NCBI GenBank assembly: GCA_038245785.1
Contig: JBBRSB010000002.1
Coordinates: forward strand, 1-64,000
Length of the DNA stretch: 64,000 nt
Direction: 5' to 3'
DNA from: Gloeobacterales cyanobacterium
GTDB taxonomy: Bacteria > Cyanobacteriota > Cyanobacteriia > Gloeobacterales > PMM-0068
The notes under the pieces are model-generated. The model was not told where the DNA came from. It did no database searches and saw only the letters and a program-made list of their open reading frames with translations. This document shows positions 7,431 to 21,485 of the stretch, in pieces (position 1 is the stretch's first letter; every line of letters begins with the position of its first letter). Both the position numbers and the translations under genes were made by a program.

Positions 7431-8120
7431 CTAACGTTTAGGTCGTTGTTCCCATATATATTTGTATAGTTGATCGATGTCTTCTTTGTCCTTGCGCGAG
7501 CAACATTCTGAGTCATCCCATCCTTGAGAAGTATTATTTTCGACCTTTATAGGAACTGGATATCGTCCCTGCCAGAAAATAAAACGGGTTAATTTCTTGA
7601 GTAACGACTTTTCTTCTTCAGAAATACGAATATTAGTTAAATCCAGTAGCTTTTCGAGGTCATGCCTTGCAAAGGCTCGACTGAGGCTCCCATCTGGTTG
7701 TACATGATGAGAATGCTTAGCGATAATGATGCCTTTGAGTAAAAGTTCGATGGAAAGACCTGACATGTAGAAATACACTAACTTCAAATTCATTTCTGAA
7801 ATTGCTTGATTTAATTGTTCTCCAGTGAAAGGGAGTGGTAAGTCTAGTCCAACCGTATTTGTTATTACTCTTGAATACAAAAGTTGATCTACTTGGTCCC
7901 AAAAGCTCCGTCCTTTATCAAGCTTCTCAAAAATAACGCTTGCCGCAAACCTATAAACTTCTGAAATTTCGTACCAACTTTCTGGTAGGGAGCCAGCATG
8001 TATAAACGCTTGCTTATGATAACGTGCCGAAAAAGTGTACCAGCTAGCGGGAAGTTGTTCTGGCTCCAGTTCTTCCAAAGGATATTCAGGCAAGGTAACC
8101 TCTCTTTTCGCAAATTTCAC
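7431..8120 (-). CDS. HEPN-like domain protein
   Basis: SIELLLKG...HDLEKL...RYP pattern of the HEPN superfamily; AT-rich. Confidence 0.5.
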   Translation of the reverse strand: MKFAKREVTLPEYPLEELEPEQLPASWYTFSARYHKQAFIHAGSLPESWYEISEVYRFAASVIFEKLDKGRSFWDQVDQLLYSRVITNTVGLDLPLPFTGEQLNQAISEMNLKLVYFYMSGLSIELLLKGIIIAKHSHHVQPDGSLSRAFARHDLEKLLDLTNIRISEEEKSLLKKLTRFIFWQGRYPVPIKVENNTSQGWDDSECCSRKDKEDIDQLYKYIWEQRPKR

Positions 8121-9862: not shown

Positions 9863-10074
9863 GTCGCAATTGTTACAAGCATACTTTCAAGATAGTTAAC
9901 AGCACTTATTCCCTCCTGGAAGATGGCTGCTCAAGAATAAAAACCCCTCTTTGACCAGTGCATTACAGGACCCTACGGCATAGTCTCTAGTCCTGCCCTC
10001 GCGCCAAACGGTAAAGCAAGTTTTGGAATGGATACCGAGCTGTTGTGATTGAATAGCTTGGTGGGGAAGGCTGT

Positions 10075-10389
10075 TTAGAATTTACTACTTTTGGGTTCCC
10101 AGCCTTGCTGCTCACGCCTCTTCTGTGCCCGCTTGGCTAAAGTCTTCCATGCTATGAGTGTTTTCACTTGATGCTCTTCTGGGCGCTTACTTACACCGTC
10201 ACGGTATACAAGTCTGCCATCAAAAGTACCCATCCACGATGTTCCATTCCGATAATTGTCGCTCCCTTTCTCCCAGCACAAAAAATATCCTGGGGTAGAC
10301 AAAGATTGTACGCATCCGGGCTCAGTAAGACCATATCCACCTAAAGCAATAACAATAGCCGATATGGTTGCTGTAATTTCTTCAAACAT
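10075..10389 (-). CDS. Small hypothetical protein, paralog of 8476-8790
   Basis: Shared N- and C-terminal motifs and two central Cys. Confidence 0.65.
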   Translation of the reverse strand: MFEEITATISAIVIALGGYGLTEPGCVQSLSTPGYFLCWEKGSDNYRNGTSWMGTFDGRLVYRDGVSKRPEEHQVKTLIAWKTLAKRAQKRREQQGWEPKSSKF

Positions 10390-10742
10390 AAATGACTTCA
10401 GGGCAAGTTAAGAACACTACTGTATGCACATCAACACGGCTTGAAGCTTACCTCGCACATTGAAAAGATAGCTTTGCGCTTTCCTCTCAAAGGTGAGCAA
10501 CAACTGCTCTAATTAATATTCCCGGACGCGGCAAGAGTATAACTAAATTTGTCTCAGTCGCCGCAATCGTAAGACCGCAGCCGTATCAATATCAATGCTC
10601 AGTTTTGTAATGGACGCCGATGGTCCGAACCGTTGTGGTCATAGTCTTAGTGTCGATAGTAACCGCTGGTGTTCTGGCACTCTTGTAAATGTAGTATATG
10701 CGACAATTAGTTACATTTCCTGAAAAAGGGGGTGATTAAAAG

Positions 10743-10865
10743 ATGACAAAGCAAGGCAGACAGTATAGAGATGCTGATTCAGGTCGGTATATCCCTAAAA
10801 AGTATGCTGACCAGCATCCCAAAACAACTGTCTCTGAACCACGACCAAAACCAAAGGGTAAATAA
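10743..10865 (+). CDS. 40-aa basic microprotein (not in ORF track)
   Basis: MTKQGRQYRDADSGRYIPKKYADQHPKTTVSEPRPKPKGK*; GGGGGTGA RBS upstream; downstream hairpin CCGACTG...CAGTCGG near 10898-10918. Confidence 0.65.
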   Translation: MTKQGRQYRDADSGRYIPKKYADQHPKTTVSEPRPKPKGK

Positions 10866-11193
10866 CACACGTTTGGCTGCTTAAATGCATGAGATGGACC
10901 GACTGCGCTAACAGTCGGCCCTTATTGTACACACGGAAGTGATCAGATCAATTCAATGCTCGGTGTTTAGGCGAGCTCACCGATTAGTTAATAACAAATG
11001 GAGTGGAGAGGCGAAGGCCGCAGTAGTGGGCGCTACGTTCAAGGAAAGTAAACCCTGCTTACTCCTTCCAAACAGGGCTACGCAAGGTATGAGAACTTTT
11101 TTTGGATCGGTGCATCACGGGTCCCCGTCAGCGTAGTCTTTTGCCCTACCCCTGTATCTTGTCCATATGTACAACTGTGCATACAATAAAGCT

Positions 11194-11460
11194 ATGGCGT
11201 ATCAATGGGACAGAGATAAAGCTGCAACCAATCTCCTCAAACATGGAATTGATTTTGCTGATGCTGTCTCTGTTTTCTCTGATGATCGAGCGATAACAGT
11301 ACCTGATGAGCGCTTTGACGAGGAGAGATTCGCCACGATGGGCATGGATGCTTCAGGCCGAGTGCTTGTGGTGGTGTACACCTAGCGTGGAAATGAGATT
11401 CGCTTGATTTCCGCTCGACCTGCGAATCGTCATCAACGCAAACAATATGAAGAGGGATAA
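11194..11460 (+). pseudogene. BrnT-family toxin with in-frame amber stop
   Basis: WDRDKAATNLLKHGIDFADA...VVVYT-[TAG 11383-11385]-RGNEIRLISARPA...EEG*; the frame continues past the stop. Confidence 0.85.
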
Positions 11461-11463
11461 ACG

Positions 11464-11718
11464 ATGGAAACAGAATATGACTTCAGCAAAGGGAAACGGG
11501 GTGCTATTGACCCCGTGGGTGCTGGGAAAACGCGCATCACTATCCGCCTGGATGATGAGGTATTAGCCTGGTTTCGAGAGCAGGTTCATTTGACGGGAGG
11601 TGGAAACTATCAAACCCTAATAAACGAAGCACTAAAAGCCTATATCCAACAGACCCACGAGCCTTTAGAAGCGACGTTGCGGCGTGTATTACGAGAGGAG
11701 TTGGGCAGTTATGAGTAA
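11464..11718 (+). CDS. BrnA-family antitoxin
   Basis: EYDFSKGKRG, KTRITIRLDDEVLAWF, YQTLINEAL motifs; directly follows brnT. Confidence 0.9.
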   Translation: METEYDFSKGKRGAIDPVGAGKTRITIRLDDEVLAWFREQVHLTGGGNYQTLINEALKAYIQQTHEPLEATLRRVLREELGSYE

Positions 11719-11896
11719 CTGAGAAACAAAACCGAATTTAGTTAACAAAGTTTAGGCACTTAAAGATGAAAGTCCTCTGGATCCCTATCAGTGTGACCTT
11801 TTGCTCTGCCATCGTATCCCAAAGCAGAGGCTTTCTTGCCCTTCGATCGATAATAAAATAAAGAATAAAGGCATGCCCCTTAGTTGGAGAAGCAGG

Positions 11897-12145
11897 ATGA
11901 CTAAAGAAACCGTTTTACTCGAATGCTGGAGAGAACTAACGCCTGAAGCTCAGGATCGGGTTTTGGAATTCGTCCAAGCATTGAATCCACACAAAGAGTC
12001 TACGGAGTTCATACCTCAAACTCCTCTTGGCAATAAACTCTGGGAGATTCGGCAACGGGCTATTTCAAAAGGACTGCAACTACTTTCTGAAAAGGAGCTA
12101 GAGGAAGAACTGGCAGACCGCAGAGGCGGGTATCGTGAGGCTTAA
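11897..12145 (+). CDS. Probable antitoxin of the PIN toxin
   Basis: ATG at 11897; WRELTPEAQDRVLEFV...TPLGNKL...EELADRRGG; overlaps the PIN gene. Confidence 0.65.
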   Translation: MTKETVLLECWRELTPEAQDRVLEFVQALNPHKESTEFIPQTPLGNKLWEIRQRAISKGLQLLSEKELEEELADRRGGYREA

Positions 12146-12545
12146 GAAAACCTATATTGATTCAGGTGTACTGATAAACGCCTTTCGTGGAACCACAGAA
12201 GTCAGCCTTAAAGCCACTCAAATCCTTGATGACCCGATAAGAGAATTCGCTTCCAGTCCGTTTGTCAAGCTAGAAGCCTTACCCAAAGCCATCTATCACA
12301 AGCAGCAAGAAGAGACTGAATTCTATGAAGTCTTCTTTGCAGCTACCAACCATTGGGCATATGACCTAGAACAGATTTTCAAGACAGCCGATCACATTGC
12401 CCGTACCTATGGACTGGCTGGTATGGATGCCTTACATGTTGCGGCTGCTCTCTCTATTGGAGTAGATGAGTTAGTGACAACGGAAAGAACTACCAAACCT
12501 ATGCATCGGGTAACTGAGGTTCGGATTGTTTCAATAGCAAACTAA
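12135..12545 (+). CDS. VapC-like PIN-domain toxin
   Basis: YIDSGVLI, conserved E, and MDALHVAAA acidic residues. Confidence 0.88.
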   Translation: MRLKKTYIDSGVLINAFRGTTEVSLKATQILDDPIREFASSPFVKLEALPKAIYHKQQEETEFYEVFFAATNHWAYDLEQIFKTADHIARTYGLAGMDALHVAAALSIGVDELVTTERTTKPMHRVTEVRIVSIAN

Positions 12546-12697
12546 AGGAGCGAGGTTGTGATGTATGAGCGTTAAGGCATCAGCAGCTTTACTCGAAAGT
12601 TCGGAGGCAAGCGGGTAGGGACAGAATAGGTTTCAGCGAGGGTTTGGCCAGAAAGAACGCCAGATAGTCCACCGTATAACGCTTTGCCCTCTGCAGC

Positions 12698-13153
12698 TTA
12701 ACTCGAACTCACATTTGTATCTTCATTCGTCTCGCGAACTTTGGCATGAGAGCCTGGCCAAGAGTCGTGTTGTGGTAGACCATCGGTGATCTCAAACCAG
12801 GGGGACTTCGAGCCAACGAAAATGTGCCCTTCTGGTTTGTTGTTCGGTGCTTGATCCAATCCGCCCAATGGAACTCCAATCTTGGTGGGATCGTTGTCGT
12901 AGGTGCTTATCAAATTTGAGCCGCAAACGGAGCAGAAGTGCTTTACAACACACTCCGACGAGTGATAGCGGGACAACAGTTCTTCGCCCTTAGTCCACTT
13001 GAACTGCGAGACCTTGATCGTGGCGCGGCTTCGGAAGGCGGAACCGTGCCACCGTCGACATTTTGAGCAGTGGCAATGAAAGATTGGGCCAAGTTCGCCC
13101 TCAATTTCGTAGGTAATTCCCTCGCAAAGGCAGCGACCCGTAAGTAGTTGCAT
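12698..13153 (-). CDS. GFA/CENP-V family protein
   Basis: GRCLCEG, CHCSKCRR, FCSVCGS Zn motifs. Confidence 0.92.
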   Translation of the reverse strand: MQLLTGRCLCEGITYEIEGELGPIFHCHCSKCRRWHGSAFRSRATIKVSQFKWTKGEELLSRYHSSECVVKHFCSVCGSNLISTYDNDPTKIGVPLGGLDQAPNNKPEGHIFVGSKSPWFEITDGLPQHDSWPGSHAKVRETNEDTNVSSS

Positions 13154-13218
13154 CGGCTCCCCTTTTGTAGGCTGCTCTTCTTTCTAAGCTCCCAGATTTT
13201 CGACAGTAGGAGTTCTTT

Positions 13219-14625
13219 CTAGAGCTTATGGTAAAGATTATAAATGCGGCGCACTTGCTCTTGAAAAGCGGCTCCTTTTGCTGGGTCTACCATACAAACG
13301 AAATTAGCAAAACCAGATAGGGAGGCCAAGAGGTCTTGCGCATGGCCCCAATGTTTGCCTTCTAATCCGTCCCGTTCGATTTGATAAAGGGTGGCTCGGA
13401 AGCGTTTGAGCTCTTTGCGGTCAATGCCTAGTCGGTCATTCACTACAATTCCAGTCACTTCCTGCTGACGACCCTTGCGTAGAACACGGGTTTTGTCGGG
13501 ATGAATGATAAAGCCTTCCTGCTGGACAAGGAAAGCCACGCGTCTGAGGAGCGTGTTTACCTGCTGGATAGGCCCACCAGAAGCAGAGAAGGTGAGGTCA
13601 TCGGCATAGCGCGTATAGCGAAATCCCAGCTTCGTTGCCATCGTGGTTAGGCTCTGGTCTAGCTTGCGACAGAGCAGATTGGTAATCACAGGACTGGTCG
13701 GTGCGCCTTGGGGCAAATGACGTTCGGTGTGGGCAACGAAGTACTGTTTACGGTCTAGTTCAAGGGCTGTGATCTCTGGTTCTGTGCAGAGGAGAGCAAA
13801 GACCGTAGCGGCTGCCTCTGAATAGCCAAAGGCCTTGAATAATCCTTTGACCCGGCGATAGGTAATGGTGGGAAAAAAATTCTGGAGGTCTAGATTGATA
13901 ACCACATCAGACCCAACATGAGGCTGGGCATTGGAGACAATAGAGCGACCGGGACGAAACCCGTGGGCGGCTTCATGGAGCTGAACTTTTTCTAAGATGT
14001 TGTGCATCACCCAGTACTGGGCTTGCTTTAAGCGGGGCATCGGAGCTGAGATCGTGCGCTCACCGCCTGTCTTCTTGGGAATCGTGAAGCGGACGTAGTG
14101 AGAGACAGTGGACGTCCGACGGGCAAAAGCTAGAAATCGCAGGGCTCCGAGCGCAATGTCCATCGCCTGGGCAATTTCTTCTGCGCTGCCATAGGGTGGT
14201 AAACCGTAGCTGGCTAGGCGTTCTCGGTCGCATTCCATGGCATTGAGGCCAGCGGAGACGCCTTCGCCTAGATAGAGCAGTGCATATTGTTTACGTTGTT
14301 GCCAGACTTGAGCCCGTTCTATGCGTTCTTGTTCACGCCGTTCTTTATTCTCTTTTTGCTTCTGGCGGGAAGCTTCTAGTCTAAGTTTGCGGGCCTCTTT
14401 GCGGAGCTGCTCTTCATTGTTTAGGCGGCGGCTTTCAGCGTATAGGTCGTTCAGTTCTCTTTGCAGTTCTGCCCGACGGCGAATCTCATCCGCTGGGTCT
14501 TGAGGCACTTCTCCCTGACGAGGCCAAAAGCCAAGCCGGATCATCTCTTCCAGGATGAATTCATCTTTTGAGGTCTGACGAATCCGGTCGTATAGTTCTT
14601 GGCGGGTTCTGGGTTGTTCAGACAT
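13219..14625 (-). CDS. Retron-type reverse transcriptase with long N-terminal extension (type XIII-like)
   Basis: IPKKTGGER.I, AHGF, retron region X NAQPH (NAxxH), LPQGAPTSP, RYADD, region Y QEVTGIVVN. Confidence 0.95.
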   Translation of the reverse strand: MSEQPRTRQELYDRIRQTSKDEFILEEMIRLGFWPRQGEVPQDPADEIRRRAELQRELNDLYAESRRLNNEEQLRKEARKLRLEASRQKQKENKERREQERIERAQVWQQRKQYALLYLGEGVSAGLNAMECDRERLASYGLPPYGSAEEIAQAMDIALGALRFLAFARRTSTVSHYVRFTIPKKTGGERTISAPMPRLKQAQYWVMHNILEKVQLHEAAHGFRPGRSIVSNAQPHVGSDVVINLDLQNFFPTITYRRVKGLFKAFGYSEAAATVFALLCTEPEITALELDRKQYFVAHTERHLPQGAPTSPVITNLLCRKLDQSLTTMATKLGFRYTRYADDLTFSASGGPIQQVNTLLRRVAFLVQQEGFIIHPDKTRVLRKGRQQEVTGIVVNDRLGIDRKELKRFRATLYQIERDGLEGKHWGHAQDLLASLSGFANFVCMVDPAKGAAFQEQVRRIYNLYHKL

Positions 14626-14671
14626 TTAAACAAAACCTCAAGGGCATTGGTAGTCTGCCCTTAAAAACATG

Positions 14672-14902
14672 ACGCACACCAGATGGAAGGAGGCCCTTCG
14701 GAAATGGCCCAGGACTGGGTCGCTCAACTCAAGCGGGGACCCTACTACCCGTCTGGAAGCTGTGCAGGAGCCACCCCGTGAAGGATGGGTAGTAGGGTCC
14801 CCGCACAGTTAAGAGTGAACCAGTGATGCGTGGTTGGACAGAGTGCATGGACGGCGATTCACCGCCCGGATTGCAAGGTCTAGCCCCTTCCACCGGATGC
14901 GC
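14672..14902 (-). ncRNA. Retron msr-msd ncRNA
   Basis: Terminal arms 14883-14902 and 14672-14694 pair over about 20 bp with GU pairs and bulges. UAG follows the 5' arm (candidate branch G at 14880). msr hairpin GGCGG-UGAA-UCGCC. msd stem has a perfect 18-bp inverted repeat (14733-14750 with 14787-14804), extended by 14714-14725 with 14813-14824. Confidence 0.85.
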
Positions 14903-14908
14903 AACGCA

Positions 14909-14914
14909 GTTATA
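14909..14914 (-). promoter_or_regulatory. Candidate -10 element for the retron ncRNA/RT transcript
   Basis: TATAAC on the minus strand about 7 nt upstream of the ncRNA 5' arm (14902); no well-spaced -35 seen. Confidence 0.35.
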
Positions 14915-15028
14915 ACCTATCACGGTCGCAATTTCGCATTTATCAAGATTTTGTGAAACCTGAGACTATAAAAATTACAGCTTTTGGTCTCGTCTATAGA
15001 TGCTTCCTAGAAGCACTTAGTTTTCGAG

Positions 15029-16537
15029 TCAGCCGAAAAATTGGTCATATGCTGCTTGTAAAAACTTAGATTTAGGCTTGATTTCACTAAGCGCTATTTT
15101 TTTATATTCTATTAATGAATTGTGAAAATCATCAGTTCTACGAACAGGATCGCTTAATTTATACTTCATGAATTCAATTAATTCATCTCTTGTATAGTAT
15201 TTGGCAATTAGCTCTAAGGTCTCTACTGATAAGTTTTGCACTCCTTGACAGACTTCCTCTAAGTCATTGAATTCTTTTTTTGCAAACTGGAGCAAGATAT
15301 TTGTATTGCCAAAGTAGAAATTGCCAAGTGTTATAGTCAATGGAAAAACTTTAGCATCAGATGAGAATCCAGGAATAGACCAGACATTATTTTTAAGGTG
15401 ATTGATGTTCTTTTTAAGTTGCTTCATAGCATCACGAAGCGTAGTGTTTATATTGCTTTTTATGTCTTGAATATTATTACGTGTTTTAGTTTTCAACGTC
15501 AGCATAGATTTTTTGCACTCTATAAGAACTAAATCTTCTCCTTTAAGCCAAAACCAATCAGCAGGTCCTTTTGTTTCTGACTTATTCACCTTCCCAGGCA
15601 TCTCAGCCATAAGCTCTGTGCTGCCCGTCATGTCCCTCAAAAGTTCTCCAACATATTTCTCAAATATCTTGCCAAATTCATTAGTGAAAGTCTGTCCATC
15701 AGCACTTAGCAAAGTATAGTAGATACCCCAAGTGATTTTCTGTTGAAGCATCTGAATCACAGGTACTACAAGTGTACCGTCCTGACACTTGATAATTGGT
15801 TTTTCATATAAAGGGTTATAAGCATAACGTTCCTGCTCAGGAACACCAGTTTCTCTAGCCCTGCTCTCGGCAATATTACGAAATTCATTATAGTCGGATT
15901 GAGTTTGTGCAAGAAAAAGTTCAACCTTGGATCTGTTAAATACTTCATGACCGTCTATTAGCAAATTTTCTATTGAGACAGTTCTGTTTTCTACTGCTTG
16001 AATATAAAGACCAAATCCAATGGTCATGAAATCACTGATGGAAAGATTTGTAATCTCCTGGAATCTTGAAGAGGGAGAATAATTTAAGTTTTGGATCGTT
16101 GGAGGTAGCATCTCCATCAGGGCATAGAAACGAGCTAGCTGATCTTTAAATTGTTTTCGAAGAGTATCTTGATCTGCCAGGAGCCTAACTAAATGAAGTA
16201 AGTGATTTTCATTAAAGAGATTCTCATCAGCAGTTACTGTACTATTCAAAAGGGGAGTGAAAAGATCCCAAGCCCCCATGCAGGAAATATTACTCCTCGC
16301 AAAAATTTGTTTGGGTTTATGGTCATTTGCTGTCAGGATACTGGTCTTACATATAAATGCAAGCTTTGAATCCTCAGAAAGTTTAGTGTCTAATACAGCT
16401 TGCTTAAACTGGATGTCACTACTCTTAAACAGAGGACTTCGGACTGAACTAAGGAGATTACTCATCATCAACACATCCTTAGTTTTGTACCTGCGAATCG
16501 AGTCAATAGACTCACTTAGACTCATATATTTATCCAA
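15029..16537 (-). CDS. AT-rich hypothetical protein with C-terminal PD-(D/E)XK-like nuclease motif
   Basis: GKIFEKYVGELL...GPADWFWLKGEDLVLIECKK; visibly more AT-rich than flanking genes. Confidence 0.6.
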   Translation of the reverse strand: MDKYMSLSESIDSIRRYKTKDVLMMSNLLSSVRSPLFKSSDIQFKQAVLDTKLSEDSKLAFICKTSILTANDHKPKQIFARSNISCMGAWDLFTPLLNSTVTADENLFNENHLLHLVRLLADQDTLRKQFKDQLARFYALMEMLPPTIQNLNYSPSSRFQEITNLSISDFMTIGFGLYIQAVENRTVSIENLLIDGHEVFNRSKVELFLAQTQSDYNEFRNIAESRARETGVPEQERYAYNPLYEKPIIKCQDGTLVVPVIQMLQQKITWGIYYTLLSADGQTFTNEFGKIFEKYVGELLRDMTGSTELMAEMPGKVNKSETKGPADWFWLKGEDLVLIECKKSMLTLKTKTRNNIQDIKSNINTTLRDAMKQLKKNINHLKNNVWSIPGFSSDAKVFPLTITLGNFYFGNTNILLQFAKKEFNDLEEVCQGVQNLSVETLELIAKYYTRDELIEFMKYKLSDPVRRTDDFHNSLIEYKKIALSEIKPKSKFLQAAYDQFFG

Positions 16538-16567
16538 TCAAGAGTGGTGCCACATGTTCTACTCAGC

Positions 16568-18217
16568 TTAGGGTTGCACAAAGCTCTGGCCATGTTTGCG
16601 GCGTAGCGCCAGAATATGCTCACAGGGACCTTTAAATAGCTTATTCTGCTGGTGCCAGTTGCAGGTGCATTCGGCACTGACGATCCGCTCATCCGCATCA
16701 ATGATCAACGTTGGAAGATAGGTTTGTCTAGTGGTACGAACTTTGCCTTGGAGGAAAAGTACGGCATTGACTTCTGTGGCGGAGGTGACCTGAACGCCAT
16801 CGGACTGTTCGAGGAATCGTTCTGCGGCTTCTTCCCGAGGATTGGCAAAACGCAAGCTTTCTAAAGGCAGCGGGTCTTGGCTCAATTCCCGTACCCGATA
16901 GACCCCTTTATTGAGGTCATAGATCACGCGTCCGGCTTGAGTGTAGGCTCCGAGGGCCCCAAGCACGAGAGAACGGTCTAGTTTCAGCCGTTGGGCAAGA
17001 CTGTCTGCACTTTCGGCCCAGTTTTGTTTCAGAGCATTAAAGATTCCTTTCTTGGTGAGGTCATCAACCTGGGTGCGGGGAGCCAAGAGGTCAAAATTTC
17101 CGGATTTAGACCAGTCGTTCGTGGTCCAACCGGAGAGACCCAAGGTGAAGGACAGATCCCCTAGATCGGCCACGTAGAAAGAAGGAAGCCCCGTGCCTAG
17201 CAGATGGACCGTAAACTTGCGGGCGACTGGGATTAAACGTTCGAGGATATGAATACGGCGGCGGCCCCAGACCCGAATTGTCTGAGCGGTGCGGCCTTGA
17301 TAAATTGAGCGAGGACAGACCACTTCTAAGTCCCAAGGGTCAAAGACAATCCGCACAGGCTCTCCCGGCACCAAGTGATAGCGCATACTGCGGGGGCCTT
17401 TTTTCTCTTTATGACGACGGAGGATAAAGCAAAGGTTGTAGACATCCATCGGTTCTAGATCAAAGGACACCAGGGGTAAGGACATCGCGGAACTGACTTG
17501 AAGAAAGCCTCGAACCCAACTGTCCGGCAGATCAATTTTGACTTCTTTGTACTCTTCTTCGCCCGTAGTTTGCACCTCGAAGCCAGAAGGGTCTACTTCG
17601 AAGCGGGTCTGCTTATAGGTGCGGATTTTTTGGAATTCGTCATAGAGAGCAGCGGAGTAGTCAATGTTGGTTGTCCCGCAGGAAAAGTCACCGACGTTTT
17701 GGAAGACTTCATAACTGGCTCCCAAGCGCCCATAGCTCGATTCATCCTGGCTGAAGCACTCAAAGAACACTTCATCGGGATGGACCGTAATCACCGGGTC
17801 TAAGACGAACCAGGCATCCCGGTCTTTCTGATAGAGATAGTCGAAATACCGCTTCTGAGACCGATAGTAACCACTCATCCGTTCAGAACTGCGCTTAGTT
17901 AAGACATTCAAGTCCTGCTGAAGTTCACGGATACGGTCAGCCGTTTGTTGGCGTTGGGCGGCCACCAGTTGCCAATCAATCTGTTCTTGGCGAACGGCCC
18001 ATTCTAGATAAGCGGTTCGGTCTTTCGGCTTGAATCGCAGGTCTGAGACTACTACATCATGAAGGGCACTGATTGCTTCCCGGAAAGCAATATTCTGCCT
18101 GAGGTTCCCCAGGAAATAGACAGGTGCGCGCTTAAGGTCGGGGGCAAAGGACATCCGGGTATCACCGCCCCGGTCTAAGACGGCGCTATTCCCTTTGTAG
18201 GCGTAGTTAAATTCCAT
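16568..18217 (-). CDS. SWIM zinc-finger protein (retron type XIII-associated)
   Basis: C-terminal CTCNWH...GPCEH (CxC...CxH); N-terminal coiled-coil; DPVITVHPD..FFECFS. Confidence 0.85.
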   Translation of the reverse strand: MEFNYAYKGNSAVLDRGGDTRMSFAPDLKRAPVYFLGNLRQNIAFREAISALHDVVVSDLRFKPKDRTAYLEWAVRQEQIDWQLVAAQRQQTADRIRELQQDLNVLTKRSSERMSGYYRSQKRYFDYLYQKDRDAWFVLDPVITVHPDEVFFECFSQDESSYGRLGASYEVFQNVGDFSCGTTNIDYSAALYDEFQKIRTYKQTRFEVDPSGFEVQTTGEEEYKEVKIDLPDSWVRGFLQVSSAMSLPLVSFDLEPMDVYNLCFILRRHKEKKGPRSMRYHLVPGEPVRIVFDPWDLEVVCPRSIYQGRTAQTIRVWGRRRIHILERLIPVARKFTVHLLGTGLPSFYVADLGDLSFTLGLSGWTTNDWSKSGNFDLLAPRTQVDDLTKKGIFNALKQNWAESADSLAQRLKLDRSLVLGALGAYTQAGRVIYDLNKGVYRVRELSQDPLPLESLRFANPREEAAERFLEQSDGVQVTSATEVNAVLFLQGKVRTTRQTYLPTLIIDADERIVSAECTCNWHQQNKLFKGPCEHILALRRKHGQSFVQP

Positions 18218-18236
18218 AGGTTGCGTATTCCATAGA

Positions 18237-21200
18237 TTACCGGGGAGTAGAAGATAGCTGGGGTGAGCGCCGTATCGGAGGGATAACCCGAATCGGCGTG
18301 GAAATTTCTGGGTACGTCCGGTGAATCTGGACCATTAGTTCCAGGGCGGTTGCCTTATCCCCGATGGCGATGGTCAAGGATTGGCGGGTCAGAATCTCAC
18401 TGACAATACGGGCCGCTGTTTCATGCTTGAGCGCTTCTTGGCGCAGGAAATCAAAAATCCGGGCCTTGGCTACCCGTCCCCGATTAACAGCCGAAAGGAC
18501 CCGCACAAAATAGGGAGCCAATTCTGCTAGACGCTCCGGGTTATCAGCGGCGTAGTCTGCCAGATAGTTGGTAGCAAATAGCTGCAGTCCCGCCGAAGGA
18601 TGCTCGCTCAAGCGCATCAGGTAGTGCTGACCATGCCCACCCTGGAAGTGCTGGGTAATCAGCTCACGGCCAAAAGCCTGCACCTCTTCCCGTACGCTGT
18701 CGCAGATGCTGATCAGTAGGTCTGGCGTACATTCTTCTGGCTGGAGGTGGGTGGTAAGTAGCTCCCGACCAAAGGCTCTGGTGTCTTCCCATCGACCATC
18801 CAGAAAACGGGCAGCAATCAGCAATTGCTGGGGGTCTTGGCGGAGCTGAGGGAATTGCTGGAGGAATAGAGAACGGGCTGCCTCGCGCACCGCCAGAATT
18901 TCATGATTAGCTAGTTTGACCAGTTCTATCGGCTCAAAGGCAGAAGCCCAATCGGTGTAATGAGTTTGGAGGGCGATACCGCCAAGTTCTTGGGCGGCAG
19001 AAGACTTCGCTTTGAGCAAGCTTAAAGCGAGATCCGGAGAAGCCCCGATTATCCACTGAGGGATGTCCTCGTTCAGAACCCTAAGCAGATCGTTATGCAC
19101 GCCTTGATGTTGTTCACGGCGCAAGAGGACCTGAATCAGCGTTTGGGCAAGTCGTAGGGCAAAATCTGGGTGCTGACTGCCTAATTGACGGATTACGGGT
19201 CGAATGGCACTGCGGAGGTCTGGCTGTTCATGACTGGCGAGGACGGCGAATAACTCTTCTTGATTAAGCAATTGTTCCTGAGAGAGTTGGCTGAAAAGAC
19301 GAATGCCCACGGCCCGAATCGCTTCATGGGCTGAATTAATCAAGCTTGCCATCAGACCTAAGGGCAGCTGTTCTACGGGCGTTTCATGATTGAGGAGGAT
19401 ACGCCCACCCAGTTCTTGCACTTCTAAAAGCGGATGATGGAGCAGGTCAAGGACTATATCTAAATTCAAGCGGCGCATCTGTGGACTAAAAACGGTGAGC
19501 AGTAAATCCCCAATCTCTTTTACGCTTTGGACCGTCTCTGGGGTCGCAGCCATCAGACTAGCGACAAGGCGCATGACCAAAGCCTCACTCACCTCAGGGT
19601 TTAGAACTGAAGCCGTGAGCAAACGACAGGCAAAGGCACGGGTGTCGGCAGAGGAACTGTTAATCAGGGCGGATAGGAAGTGGGTATTTGCCAGAAAAGC
19701 TTCGCGATTCTGCTCTACCCAGCGATAGGCGGTAGTGCGAGCGGTTGTATCAATACAATGGGCTGCCGCCAGGACCAAATCCAGGTTAGGGGCTGTGGGC
19801 TGATAACGTGCTTGGGCGAGTTCAAAAATGAATTGAGCGGTTCCTTCGTAGGGTGTGCCTAAAAGGCGAATGAGCACGGAGAGTTCTACCTGAACCCAGA
19901 AGGCCGGACACTCCTTAAACACTTTGACTGCGAACCGATGGACTTCCTGACACGTGCTTTGCTCTAAAAGGCCCACAAGCGCTTGAGGCTGCTGTTCCCA
20001 CAAATGAGGAAAGGCTTCTTCTCGCTCAATGGGGACAGGACCTCCCGGTCTATAGGTCGGACGGCAACGCCAGGTCCGACCATTATTTTTCAGAAAGTAG
20101 CGGGGACTATGGGTATAGAGGATGTGATTGAACGGCAGATAGTTCGCCCAGCTATCCCAACGGGTCGTCTCTGTGATGCTCCGTCGCTGTCGGGAGTCAT
20201 AGCGATGGATGGTGTTCTCTTTCGGCGGCAGGGCATCCGCATCGCTGTAGGCCAGCAATACGCCCGCAGCCATCGGTACATAATCTGAGCTTTCTAAGAT
20301 GCCTAGTTTGCGGAGGGTGCGCCAGGTCCGACGACGCAGATATTCACGGGTGCCACTGCTGTAGGCATAGGTAGCCTCTGGCGTTTTTAGATATTGCTTA
20401 AATTCTTCATTAGAAAAGTAGCGGTAGCCTCGTCTCTGGCTTGCATCTTCCATGTACATGCCGTAATCAGGAGAAGGACTCTTGTACGCTGCTCTTTCTT
20501 TTTCAAACCGATAGGATAAAAGGCCGAAGACTTCTCCATCTCTTCGGTACTCTGCCACTTTGAAGATGTGACGTACGTGCCGAAAGGAGCCATGTTTCAG
20601 GGAGATAGTCCGGAGCAGTTCAAGCAAGGCTGGACGGACGGTGCTATCGCCAGAAATATATAGAGTTTCTAAGAGTGCGAAACCCTGGGTTGGGTTCTCT
20701 GCCAGCTCTGTGCGTAGGTTGGTAACCTGTTCCTCCGTTGAGCTAAAGGAGCCAGAATCCATCAGGGCTCGTACCCGCTCAGGCCAGAGGGATAGATTTT
20801 GCTGTTGTCCTTGGCTGCGGATGTCAGGAGCCAGTTTGAAGATAGCTTCCAGGCTAATCCGCTGTACCGCTTCGGTCGTATTAGCCTGATTTAGTAACTG
20901 CTGGAGGGCAGGGACCGCGCTGGGGTCTCCACACCAACCTAAAGCCCAGGCAAGACAGTAATCTCTGAGGGCATCACCACTGCCGATCAGCCGGACTAAT
21001 AAAGGGGCCGCTTCTCCAATCTGTAGTTCTCCGGCCCGCCAGATAGCTCGCTCTAAGGGCCATTTACTCTTGGCGGCAGTTTGTCTGGAACTGAGGACAT
21101 TTTGGACAAAGCGATTGAGCTGCCCGGTCAGGGTGGAAACTGCTCCCTCTTCCTCCAATCGTTTGAGAACGTTACACTTACGGGCTTCTGGGTCTATGAC

Positions 21201-21485
21201 GGATATGCGCTTAGGGGTTGGAACAGGGGCAGGTGCGCTTGGTGCATCGCCTTCCTGATAGCCCTTTTTGACTTTGGAGGCAACCAGTTTGTCAAAGGCC
21301 CGCTGGGCTTCATTCAAGGGAAGGGCCTGTACGGTTTCTACGCCCTCTCTCAGGTTGGAGCCTCTACGCCCATAGCGGAAGTTAACCACATAGCGCCCAG
21401 GACTGACCTCACAAAGGTCTACTTCATAGACTTTGTCTGAGCTGCCTTCGCGGTAGTAGAGGCTGGTCCGTTTAATCAGTTGCAT
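18237..21485 (-). CDS. WGR-domain plus HEAT/ARM-repeat protein (retron type XIII-associated)
   Basis: N-terminal SDKVYEV...FRYGRRG...FDKLVASKVKKGY (WGR); long helical repeat region (WALGWCGDPSAVPAL). Confidence 0.85.
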   Translation of the reverse strand: MQLIKRTSLYYREGSSDKVYEVDLCEVSPGRYVVNFRYGRRGSNLREGVETVQALPLNEAQRAFDKLVASKVKKGYQEGDAPSAPAPVPTPKRISVIDPEARKCNVLKRLEEEGAVSTLTGQLNRFVQNVLSSRQTAAKSKWPLERAIWRAGELQIGEAAPLLVRLIGSGDALRDYCLAWALGWCGDPSAVPALQQLLNQANTTEAVQRISLEAIFKLAPDIRSQGQQQNLSLWPERVRALMDSGSFSSTEEQVTNLRTELAENPTQGFALLETLYISGDSTVRPALLELLRTISLKHGSFRHVRHIFKVAEYRRDGEVFGLLSYRFEKERAAYKSPSPDYGMYMEDASQRRGYRYFSNEEFKQYLKTPEATYAYSSGTREYLRRRTWRTLRKLGILESSDYVPMAAGVLLAYSDADALPPKENTIHRYDSRQRRSITETTRWDSWANYLPFNHILYTHSPRYFLKNNGRTWRCRPTYRPGGPVPIEREEAFPHLWEQQPQALVGLLEQSTCQEVHRFAVKVFKECPAFWVQVELSVLIRLLGTPYEGTAQFIFELAQARYQPTAPNLDLVLAAAHCIDTTARTTAYRWVEQNREAFLANTHFLSALINSSSADTRAFACRLLTASVLNPEVSEALVMRLVASLMAATPETVQSVKEIGDLLLTVFSPQMRRLNLDIVLDLLHHPLLEVQELGGRILLNHETPVEQLPLGLMASLINSAHEAIRAVGIRLFSQLSQEQLLNQEELFAVLASHEQPDLRSAIRPVIRQLGSQHPDFALRLAQTLIQVLLRREQHQGVHNDLLRVLNEDIPQWIIGASPDLALSLLKAKSSAAQELGGIALQTHYTDWASAFEPIELVKLANHEILAVREAARSLFLQQFPQLRQDPQQLLIAARFLDGRWEDTRAFGRELLTTHLQPEECTPDLLISICDSVREEVQAFGRELITQHFQGGHGQHYLMRLSEHPSAGLQLFATNYLADYAADNPERLAELAPYFVRVLSAVNRGRVAKARIFDFLRQEALKHETAARIVSEILTRQSLTIAIGDKATALELMVQIHRTYPEISTPIRVIPPIRRSPQLSSTPR

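Follow-up and report, generated by a model that had tools for sequence, protein, structure and literature searches.

Background

Type XIII retrons, to which the first retron ever discovered belongs, form a class that is not known to have gained an assigned function or a solved structure since 1984. In the classification of Mestre et al. (2020; PMC7736814), type XIII corresponds to reverse transcriptase (RT) clade 10 and includes Mx162 (Retron-Mxa1), Sa163 (Retron-Sau1), Mx65 (Retron-Mxa2) and Ne144 (Retron-Nex2). The gene set given there consists of a clade 10 RT, a SWIM protein (cluster 114_1, with the motif CxCx12CxH) and, preceding it, a WGR-like protein with HEAT/ARM repeats (cluster 216). 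Supplementary table 1 of the census of Khan et al. (PMC10849725) holds 17 type XIII rows, including Mestre-1731 of Calothrix sp. NIES-4105 and Mestre-1732 of Tolypothrix sp. NIES-4075; the same paper names clades 2, 9 and 10 as the top RT-DNA producers, with a high yield for clade 10 in E. coli. In the account of Simon et al. (PMC6868368), the priming G is either the last base on the msr side of the closing stem or the base directly after it, usually in a TAGC context, the contexts being CAGC in Mx162 and Sa163, GAGC in Mx65 and CAGA in Ec67, and the RNA and DNA of Mx162 overlap by 8 bases. Khan et al. add that the priming G is often preceded by TTA and that the first copied base is most often G (PMC10849725).

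The window, that is, the whole stretch of 64,000 nucleotides analysed here, belongs to a cyanobacterial genome (13 phycobilisome-family matches). It contains a complete type XIII retron, an ordinary member of its class. Like Mx162, Sa163, Mx65 and Ne144, it combines an RT carrying an N-terminal extension with SWIM/DEDE and WGR-HEAT/ARM partners, and in its non-coding RNA (ncRNA) the a1/a2 stem and the msd hairpin are long and the msr hairpin is short. The transcript would be about 240 nt long, compared with 241 nt for Mx162, and the msDNA, predicted in the window, exceeds 100 nt in both. The likeness to the myxobacterial Mx162, Mx65 and Sa163 was judged by the gene set and the RNA layout. The window differs from these four retrons in its cyanobacterial host, in its predicted priming context (UAGA instead of CAGC or GAGC) and in a GapS1-like gene within the operon. 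Retron-Eco1 (Ec86) has the closest solved RT (4.9e-43), and there too a G after the a1 stem primes synthesis and the msd is copied towards the msr. However, the Ec86 RT is shorter and lacks the N-terminal extension, its partner genes are different, its msDNA is much shorter and its RNA has no sequence similarity to that of the window, for which an Rfam scan was empty. The type, the partner genes and the ncRNA layout have already been published, relatives have been tested for RT-DNA, and the discovery is a modest one; the locus offers a compact, well-delimited and directly clonable example with a predicted start, stop and branch site.

Gene content of the operon

The operon lies on the minus strand in the order WGR/HEAT, SWIM, GapS1-like, ncRNA and RT. 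Its protein-coding genes are as follows.

18237..21485, minus strand: WGR and HEAT/ARM repeat partner, 1082 aa, first gene of the operon (PADLOC WGR_XIII, E = 0, 1154 bits, protein residues 1-1070)
16568..18217, minus strand: SWIM zinc-finger partner, 549 aa (PADLOC SWIM_XIII, 2e-241)
15029..16537, minus strand: GapS1-like gene, 502 aa, inserted after the SWIM gene and ahead of the ncRNA; no canonical part of a retron (NCBIfam NF047931)
13219..14625, minus strand: retron RT, 468 aa, with a long N-terminal extension (PADLOC RT_XIII, 3.1e-192, 637.7 bits)

The RT matches the RT_XIII model with residues 1-464 on positions 7-426 of 469, the next best model scoring 321.9 bits. Pfam RVT_1 covers residues 182-393, and the motifs NAQPH (at 232), YADD (at 340) and VTG (at 390) are present; NAXXH and VTG are among the retron RT motifs named in PMC7736814 and PMC6868368. 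The SWIM protein carries the CxCx12CxH motif (CTCx12CEH) at residue 517, and its Pfam SWIM match (19.4 bits) falls just under the cut-off of 19.6. In the 1082-aa protein, Pfam recognizes WGR at residues 14-79 and HEAT_2, and three PADLOC HEAT-ARM_XIII models also match. A WGR gene likewise stands upstream of the SWIM gene in 12 of the relatives' loci (L001, L003, L006-L011, L046, L047, L049 and L054) and is cut by the edge of the locus in L002. Thus the RT clade, the RT motifs, both partner proteins and the adjacent ncRNA layout of type XIII are all found at this locus. The earlier note on this DNA had described an unannotated msr-msd RNA from the letters alone, and the complete gene set around it bears out that identity. 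A PDB sequence search returned no solved relative of the SWIM protein or of the 502-aa protein, and the Ec86 RT was the only solved relative that such a search found for the type XIII proteins.

The 502-aa protein matches the NF047931 model (the GapS1 anti-phage family) at E 4.1e-40 over residues 110-428 (model positions 84-397 of 455), with 138 bits against a curated cut-off of 320, and is hence called "GapS1-like" only. Neither Pfam nor PADLOC gave a match for it, and tblastn found the gene in its own locus only (contig C2 of the genome, and L024, which represents the window itself), all the relatives' loci fetched being without it. The 3' end of this gene is also covered by a related strain in a public sequencing run (X2).

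The same genome contains a second, different retron-type RT on the minus strand of another contig (G000:C29:50649-51656; RT_XIII model, E 9.5e-65). It is 32.5% identical to the window's RT over 280 aa, and no copy of the ncRNA lies near it.

Structure and ends of the ncRNA gene

By sequence reading and folding, the ncRNA gene occupies minus-strand positions 14907-14667 in an a1-msr-msd-a2 layout, with the RT gene 41 nt downstream. Its parts, in the direction of transcription, are given below.

14909..14922, minus strand: candidate -10 region, TATAAC (14914-14909) or TGaTAGGTT (14922-14914), inferred from sequence reading
14882..14907, minus strand: a1, 5' arm of the closing stem (RNAduplex; helix 1 compensatory in 9 of 9 pairs of the family model)
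14879..14881, minus strand: linker A-G-A with the candidate branching G14880 in a UAG context, the only G between the a1 stem and CCUUGCAA
14844..14878, minus strand: msr core (helix 3 99.3% paired, 4 of 8 pairs compensatory; register test)
14825..14843, minus strand: msr-msd spacer, single-stranded (unpaired in single-sequence and alignment folds)
14714..14824, minus strand: long msd hairpin (helices 4-10, 92-99% paired, 33 of 40 pairs compensatory)
14696..14713, minus strand: conserved 3' block of the msd, ending in CGAAGG (invariant alignment columns)
14667..14695, minus strand: a2, 3' arm of the closing stem (RNAduplex and covariation alignment)
14663..14667, minus strand: U-run directly after a2, a terminator-like 3' end inferred from sequence reading

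We consider it highly probable that this stretch encodes the msr-msd ncRNA of an intact cyanobacterial type XIII retron. Positions given earlier for the arms, the UAG, the msd core, the outer stem and TATAAC all proved correct when the minus strand was read again, and the fold matches the structure described there. A 246-nt stretch folds at -117.4 kcal/mol, compared with -88.7 ± 4.2 kcal/mol in 200 shuffles (z -6.81), none of which folds as well. The gene is single-copy in its genome (nhmmer). An Rfam scan of positions 10000-20000 gave no match at E up to 1, and the exact coordinates given here locate an RNA gene that will escape Rfam-based pipelines. An open reading frame of 64 aa (14729-14923) overlaps the ncRNA; a coding role was rejected, the variation there being compensatory pairing.

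The closing stem was claimed in the earlier note to contain GU pairs and three single-U bulges, as RNAduplex now confirms. The 5' arm, GCGCAUCCGGUGGAAGGGGC (14902-14883), faces a 3' arm at 14694-14672, and the duplex comprises 21 bp (14902-14882 with 14695-14672), including four G.U pairs and exactly three single-U bulges (U14691, U14683 and U14678); four further pairs are possible, to 14907/14667. Its energy is -37.0 kcal/mol, which none of 500 shuffles of the 3' partner reaches (mean -20.4, sd 3.6, best -36.8).

Transcription would start from the gene's own promoter just upstream of 14907 or arise by read-through of the operon. TATAAC does lie upstream of the 5' arm, with 6 nt between them, but a promoter role for it is unsupported: the conserved last T is missing, and a promoter scan of 14550-15150 called no site on the minus strand. 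A terminator scan of the same interval also called nothing on this strand. Because a U-run follows a2 in the window and a T-run is common to most of 36 copies of the gene, the closing stem may double as a terminator; a 7-bp hairpin (14662-14640) lies between the U-run and the RT start.

Conservation and covariation in relatives

A scan of one genome per species yielded 15 loci whose RT is 55-71% identical to that of the window. They come from a Gloeobacterales MAG, Calothrix species, other cyanobacteria, Planctomicrobium, Fuerstiella, an acidobacterium and one bin labelled Enterobacterales. Of 401 genomes of the window's phylum, 47 matched in a family search at E <= 1e-50; the weaker of these matches are probably other retron types. 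Wider stretches were taken for 17 of the relatives' loci.

Alignment of ten upstream regions has 57 invariant columns, and RNAalifold places 65 pairs in it, 39 of them compensatory. The covariance model that the earlier note had suggested building from homologous loci was made from 10 relatives (model R1) and run over the window plus 52 loci (53 sources; ten loci duplicating others or the window were left out). Its 39 matches (36 distinct) fall in cyanobacteria, planctomycetes and acidobacteria, and the window's ncRNA matches over its full length with 205.6 bits. In the resulting alignment (A2), 94.2% of cells are paired, compared with 33.3-41.1% when the partners are slid by 1-3 columns, and 47 of the 65 pairs change on both sides. 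The covariation score is 0.546, as against 0.066-0.092 for slid partners, and none of 500 shuffles reaches the observed values, although these shuffle counts overstate the significance, because A2 was fitted to the model structure and many of its rows are kin. The ncRNA co-occurs with RT_XIII across the three phyla. For the branch of type XIII ncRNAs found in cyanobacteria, planctomycetes and acidobacteria, R1 offers a model supported by covariance.

The locus of Calothrix sp. NIES-4105 (L007) is one of the relatives listed in the census. Its RT is 64% identical to the window's and its ncRNA scores 230.6 bits with R1; unlike the window, it has two ncRNA genes 1.5 kb apart, and the RT-proximal one has no linker G.

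The msr and the candidate priming site

Within the msr core, an invariant CCUUGCAA (14878-14871) is followed by a hairpin enclosed by the helix UGCA/UGCA (14875-14872 with 14847-14844). The presence of this hairpin and its UGCA/UGCA flank were rightly seen in the earlier note. However, the register read there, GGCGG-UGAA-UCGCC (5 bp), pairs in only 86.1% of cells in relatives, with a covariation of 0.186 and 3 compensatory cells, whereas a register shifted by 3 pairs in 98.9%, with a covariation of 0.600 and 26 compensatory cells. The hairpin is therefore drawn here with 8 bp and a 3-nt loop, GGGCGGUG-AAU-CGCCGUCC (14867-14849). In all four sequencing runs examined, window position 14859 is C, not T, on the plus strand, which gives a GAU loop instead of AAU, as in many relatives.

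G14880 was proposed earlier as the branch G, and we consider it the best candidate and a reasonably probable one. UAG directly follows the 5' arm, and besides G14880 the 4-nt linker has no G and the a1/a2 stem no adjoining unpaired G; the context of G14880 resembles the TAGC and CAGA contexts of known priming sites. In most relatives it aligns with the last G before CCUUGCAA, found as GAG|CC in 7 copies, CAG|CC in 4, UAG|CC in 1 and CGG|CC in 1. One A follows the linker G in the window and in L001 and two in six copies, and in the remaining copies the G is farther from CCUUGCAA. What did not hold up is a fixed position: no alignment column common to the branch G was found in 24 and then 36 copies, the G standing 0 to 7 nt before CCUUGCAA, and five copies have no linker G (L007 proximal, L008 proximal, L007 distal, L005 distal and L038).

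These exceptions leave room for a second explanation, in which the ncRNA is a genuine type XIII ncRNA primed elsewhere, for example at a G of the a1 stem end (14884-14887), with a correspondingly shifted DNA start. In the five copies mentioned only stem Gs are left, the a1-to-CCUUGCAA linker varies from 2 to 10 nt in relatives, and a possible CCUU/AAGG helix closing the junction (95.2% pairable, 3 of 4 pairs invariant) would place the linker in a bulge and not at the end of the stem. On the other hand, most relatives have NAG and then 0-2 A before CCUUGCAA, and the G-less copies may be decayed, L005 distal scoring 97.2 bits and L038 29.4 bits with R1. Priming at a stem G is a realistic possibility, but we rate it clearly below priming at G14880.

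The msd hairpin and the predicted msDNA

The long msd hairpin is as described earlier: an outer stem pairs ACUGG (14824-14820) with CCAGU (14718-14714), a perfect core of 18 bp joins 14804-14787 to 14750-14733, and the apex measures 36 nt (14786-14751). Both the reading of the sequence and the covariation of helices 4-10 confirm it. An invariant UCACU ends the spacer between msr and msd on its 3' side. Helix 11, which belongs to the 3' block, reaches only 75% pairing and a single compensatory pair; no conclusion is based on it here.

A helix that exists only as RNA tolerates G.U pairs, whereas a helix that must also pair as complementary DNA does not, G.U becoming C.A there. G.U accounts for 16.9% of the paired cells (120 of 710) in helices 1-3, which make up a1/a2 and the two helices of the msr, and 16 of 21 pairs there wobble at least once. 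In helices 4-10, the seven helices of the long hairpin including its ACUGG/CCAGU base, only 9 of 1192 paired cells (0.8%) are G.U, and wobble occurs in 6 of 40 pairs. The hairpin is thus constrained on both strands. Because G.U is avoided in the long hairpin, unlike in a1/a2 and the msr, positions 14714-14824 are marked as reverse transcribed by this contrast, which is our own indirect test and not a published criterion; the msDNA would span at least this interval. Needing the sequence alone, such a contrast is a cheap way of telling the reverse-transcribed helices of a retron RNA from the others.

The earlier proposal that the msDNA is the plus strand from about 14696 to about 14825 is independently supported by this avoidance. 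G14696 is the first unpaired base 5' of a2 in RNAduplex and would be the first templated base. The spacer is the expected zone for the RT to stop and for a short RNA-DNA overlap; by analogy with Mx162, the stop may be placed at about 14825-14835, and because of this placement the predicted length of the msDNA is about 130-140 nt. The plus-strand DNA of 14695-14830 folds at -35.7 kcal/mol (z -5.8).

We envisage that the two ends of the transcript, a1 and a2, pair, that the RT binds the conserved msr hairpin, and that the 2'-OH of the unpaired G14880 primes DNA synthesis. Copying would begin opposite G14696, pass through the 3' block and the long hairpin and stop in the spacer, host RNase H removing the copied RNA. 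The product would be a branched RNA-DNA molecule, the DNA part being the plus strand from about 14696 to about 14825-14835. To judge from other retrons, the complex of msDNA and RT might act with the SWIM and WGR/HEAT proteins, possibly in defence.

Across the phyla, the msd apex shows a sequence motif of about UUCCGGUGUGACUUC..UAAAGU and two small covarying helices (A2 columns 140-313). The apex of the window departs from these two small helices at several pairs (UC, CU and CC cells).

Sequencing runs and integrity of the locus

Public sequencing gives a weak hint that the ncRNA is expressed. Twenty-two runs were listed, all as contigs, which carry no ends, strand or depth profile, and 4 were examined. 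Both of the metatranscriptome runs examined (of 6 listed; freshwater, from different studies) contain whole short contigs inside the ncRNA, one of 201 nt at 14664-14864 and one of 189 nt at 14705-14893. Neither has a comparable contig on the RT; one contig of 151 nt touches 36 nt of the RT, the rest being unlike it. Gaps in RT coverage in X15 and X19 do not count as evidence. Contigs of two runs of unspecified kind (X2 and X5) cover both genes, with an identity of about 91% for the RT and about 98% for the ncRNA. The hint is therefore confounded, since the ncRNA is far better conserved than the RT and may alone pass the 90% filter, and DNA or msDNA can enter RNA libraries.

An improbable explanation is that the ncRNA is a conserved but unproductive relic, the GapS1-like insertion having uncoupled ncRNA and RT from their partners so that no msDNA is made. 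Loss of this kind has parallels among the relatives, in which the RT-proximal ncRNA copy may be cut after CUUGCAAC (L006, L010 and L011) and lone RTs occur without partners (L048 and L050-L053), and the empty promoter scan would fit it as well. However, the four genes of the window are full length against their models, the catalytic motifs of the RT are intact, the ncRNA matches R1 from end to end, and a near-identical ncRNA is present in the four sequencing runs examined. An intact retron remains by far the better reading. Some other structured element, such as an RT leader or attenuator, a terminator or a palindromic repeat, could be suspected from the U-run after the closing stem and the absence of an Rfam family, but this is extremely unlikely given the full a1-msr-msd-a2 layout beside a retron RT, the co-occurrence with RT_XIII in three phyla, the single copy in the genome, which speaks against a dispersed repeat, and a strand-symmetric constraint on the hairpin that is unexpected for an RNA-only leader.

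Additional ncRNA copies and cargo genes

Eight relatives have two ncRNA genes per RT. In four the copies are in tandem (L002:3901-4419, L003:5052-5567, L004:1004-1546 and L005:4163-4709), and in the other four (L007, L008, L009 and L054) they are separated by 0.7-2.4 kb of other genes. A search of the literature for natural retrons with such a pair of ncRNA genes turned up nothing relevant. What the copies of one genome have in common is msr, hairpin base, apex and 3' block (in L002, 56/59, 25/26, 29/29, 24/25 and 20/20); they diverge in a1/a2 (14/26, 16/24) and in a mid-stem box of about 9 bp whose changes are compensated (9/17, 8/16).

The space between the SWIM-proximal ncRNA and the RT is occupied in several relatives by cargo genes. 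These encode an NYN nuclease and an RNase III, in the orientation of the retron (L046:7024-9009 and L047:2935-5377), two PIN proteins (L049:2977-4759), an alpha/beta hydrolase (L054:3248-4489), TPR and peptidoglycan-binding proteins (L007:6216-7693) and a Tudor/Agenet protein (L008:5254-7633). The ncRNA-RT junction looks like a hot spot for insertion.

Decay is also visible in this region. The Calothrix RT-proximal ncRNAs of L006, L010 and L011 end abruptly (at about 7880-8000), and an intact second copy lies beside the SWIM gene in each of these loci; in L012 and L013, only the upstream sequence on the a1 side of the RT-proximal ncRNA is left. The lone type XIII-like RTs of five genomes (L048 and L050-L053) are 52-67% identical to the window's RT, and no SWIM gene, WGR gene or ncRNA lies in the sequence around them (about 9 kb on the upstream side, about 1.5 kb on the downstream side).

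Over the three phyla, variation is confined to a1/a2 and the mid-stem box of about 9 bp in the msd, where it is always compensated; msr, hairpin base, apex and 3' block are near-fixed. The boxes also favour a CTACC/TACTAC-type word, whichever its orientation. A speculative and rather doubtful proposal is that this box is an exchangeable specificity element of type XIII msDNA and that the ncRNA-RT junction is a preferred landing site for defence or nuclease genes. If so, the mid-stem duplex would be a surface read by a phage factor or by the SWIM/WGR partners, one RT could arm two sensors, and the cargo of the junction would be the GapS1-like gene in the window and NYN plus RNase III or PIN genes in relatives.

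The words CTACC, TACTA and ACTAC occur in the mid-stem, on either arm, in 9, 9 and 8 of 26 arms (26 distinct copies), compared with a mean of 4.2 arms and a maximum of 7 for the commonest 5-mer in 1000 shuffles, an enrichment that is inflated by the kinship of the copies. In the window, the mid-stem at 14797-14787 has CCCTACTACCC.
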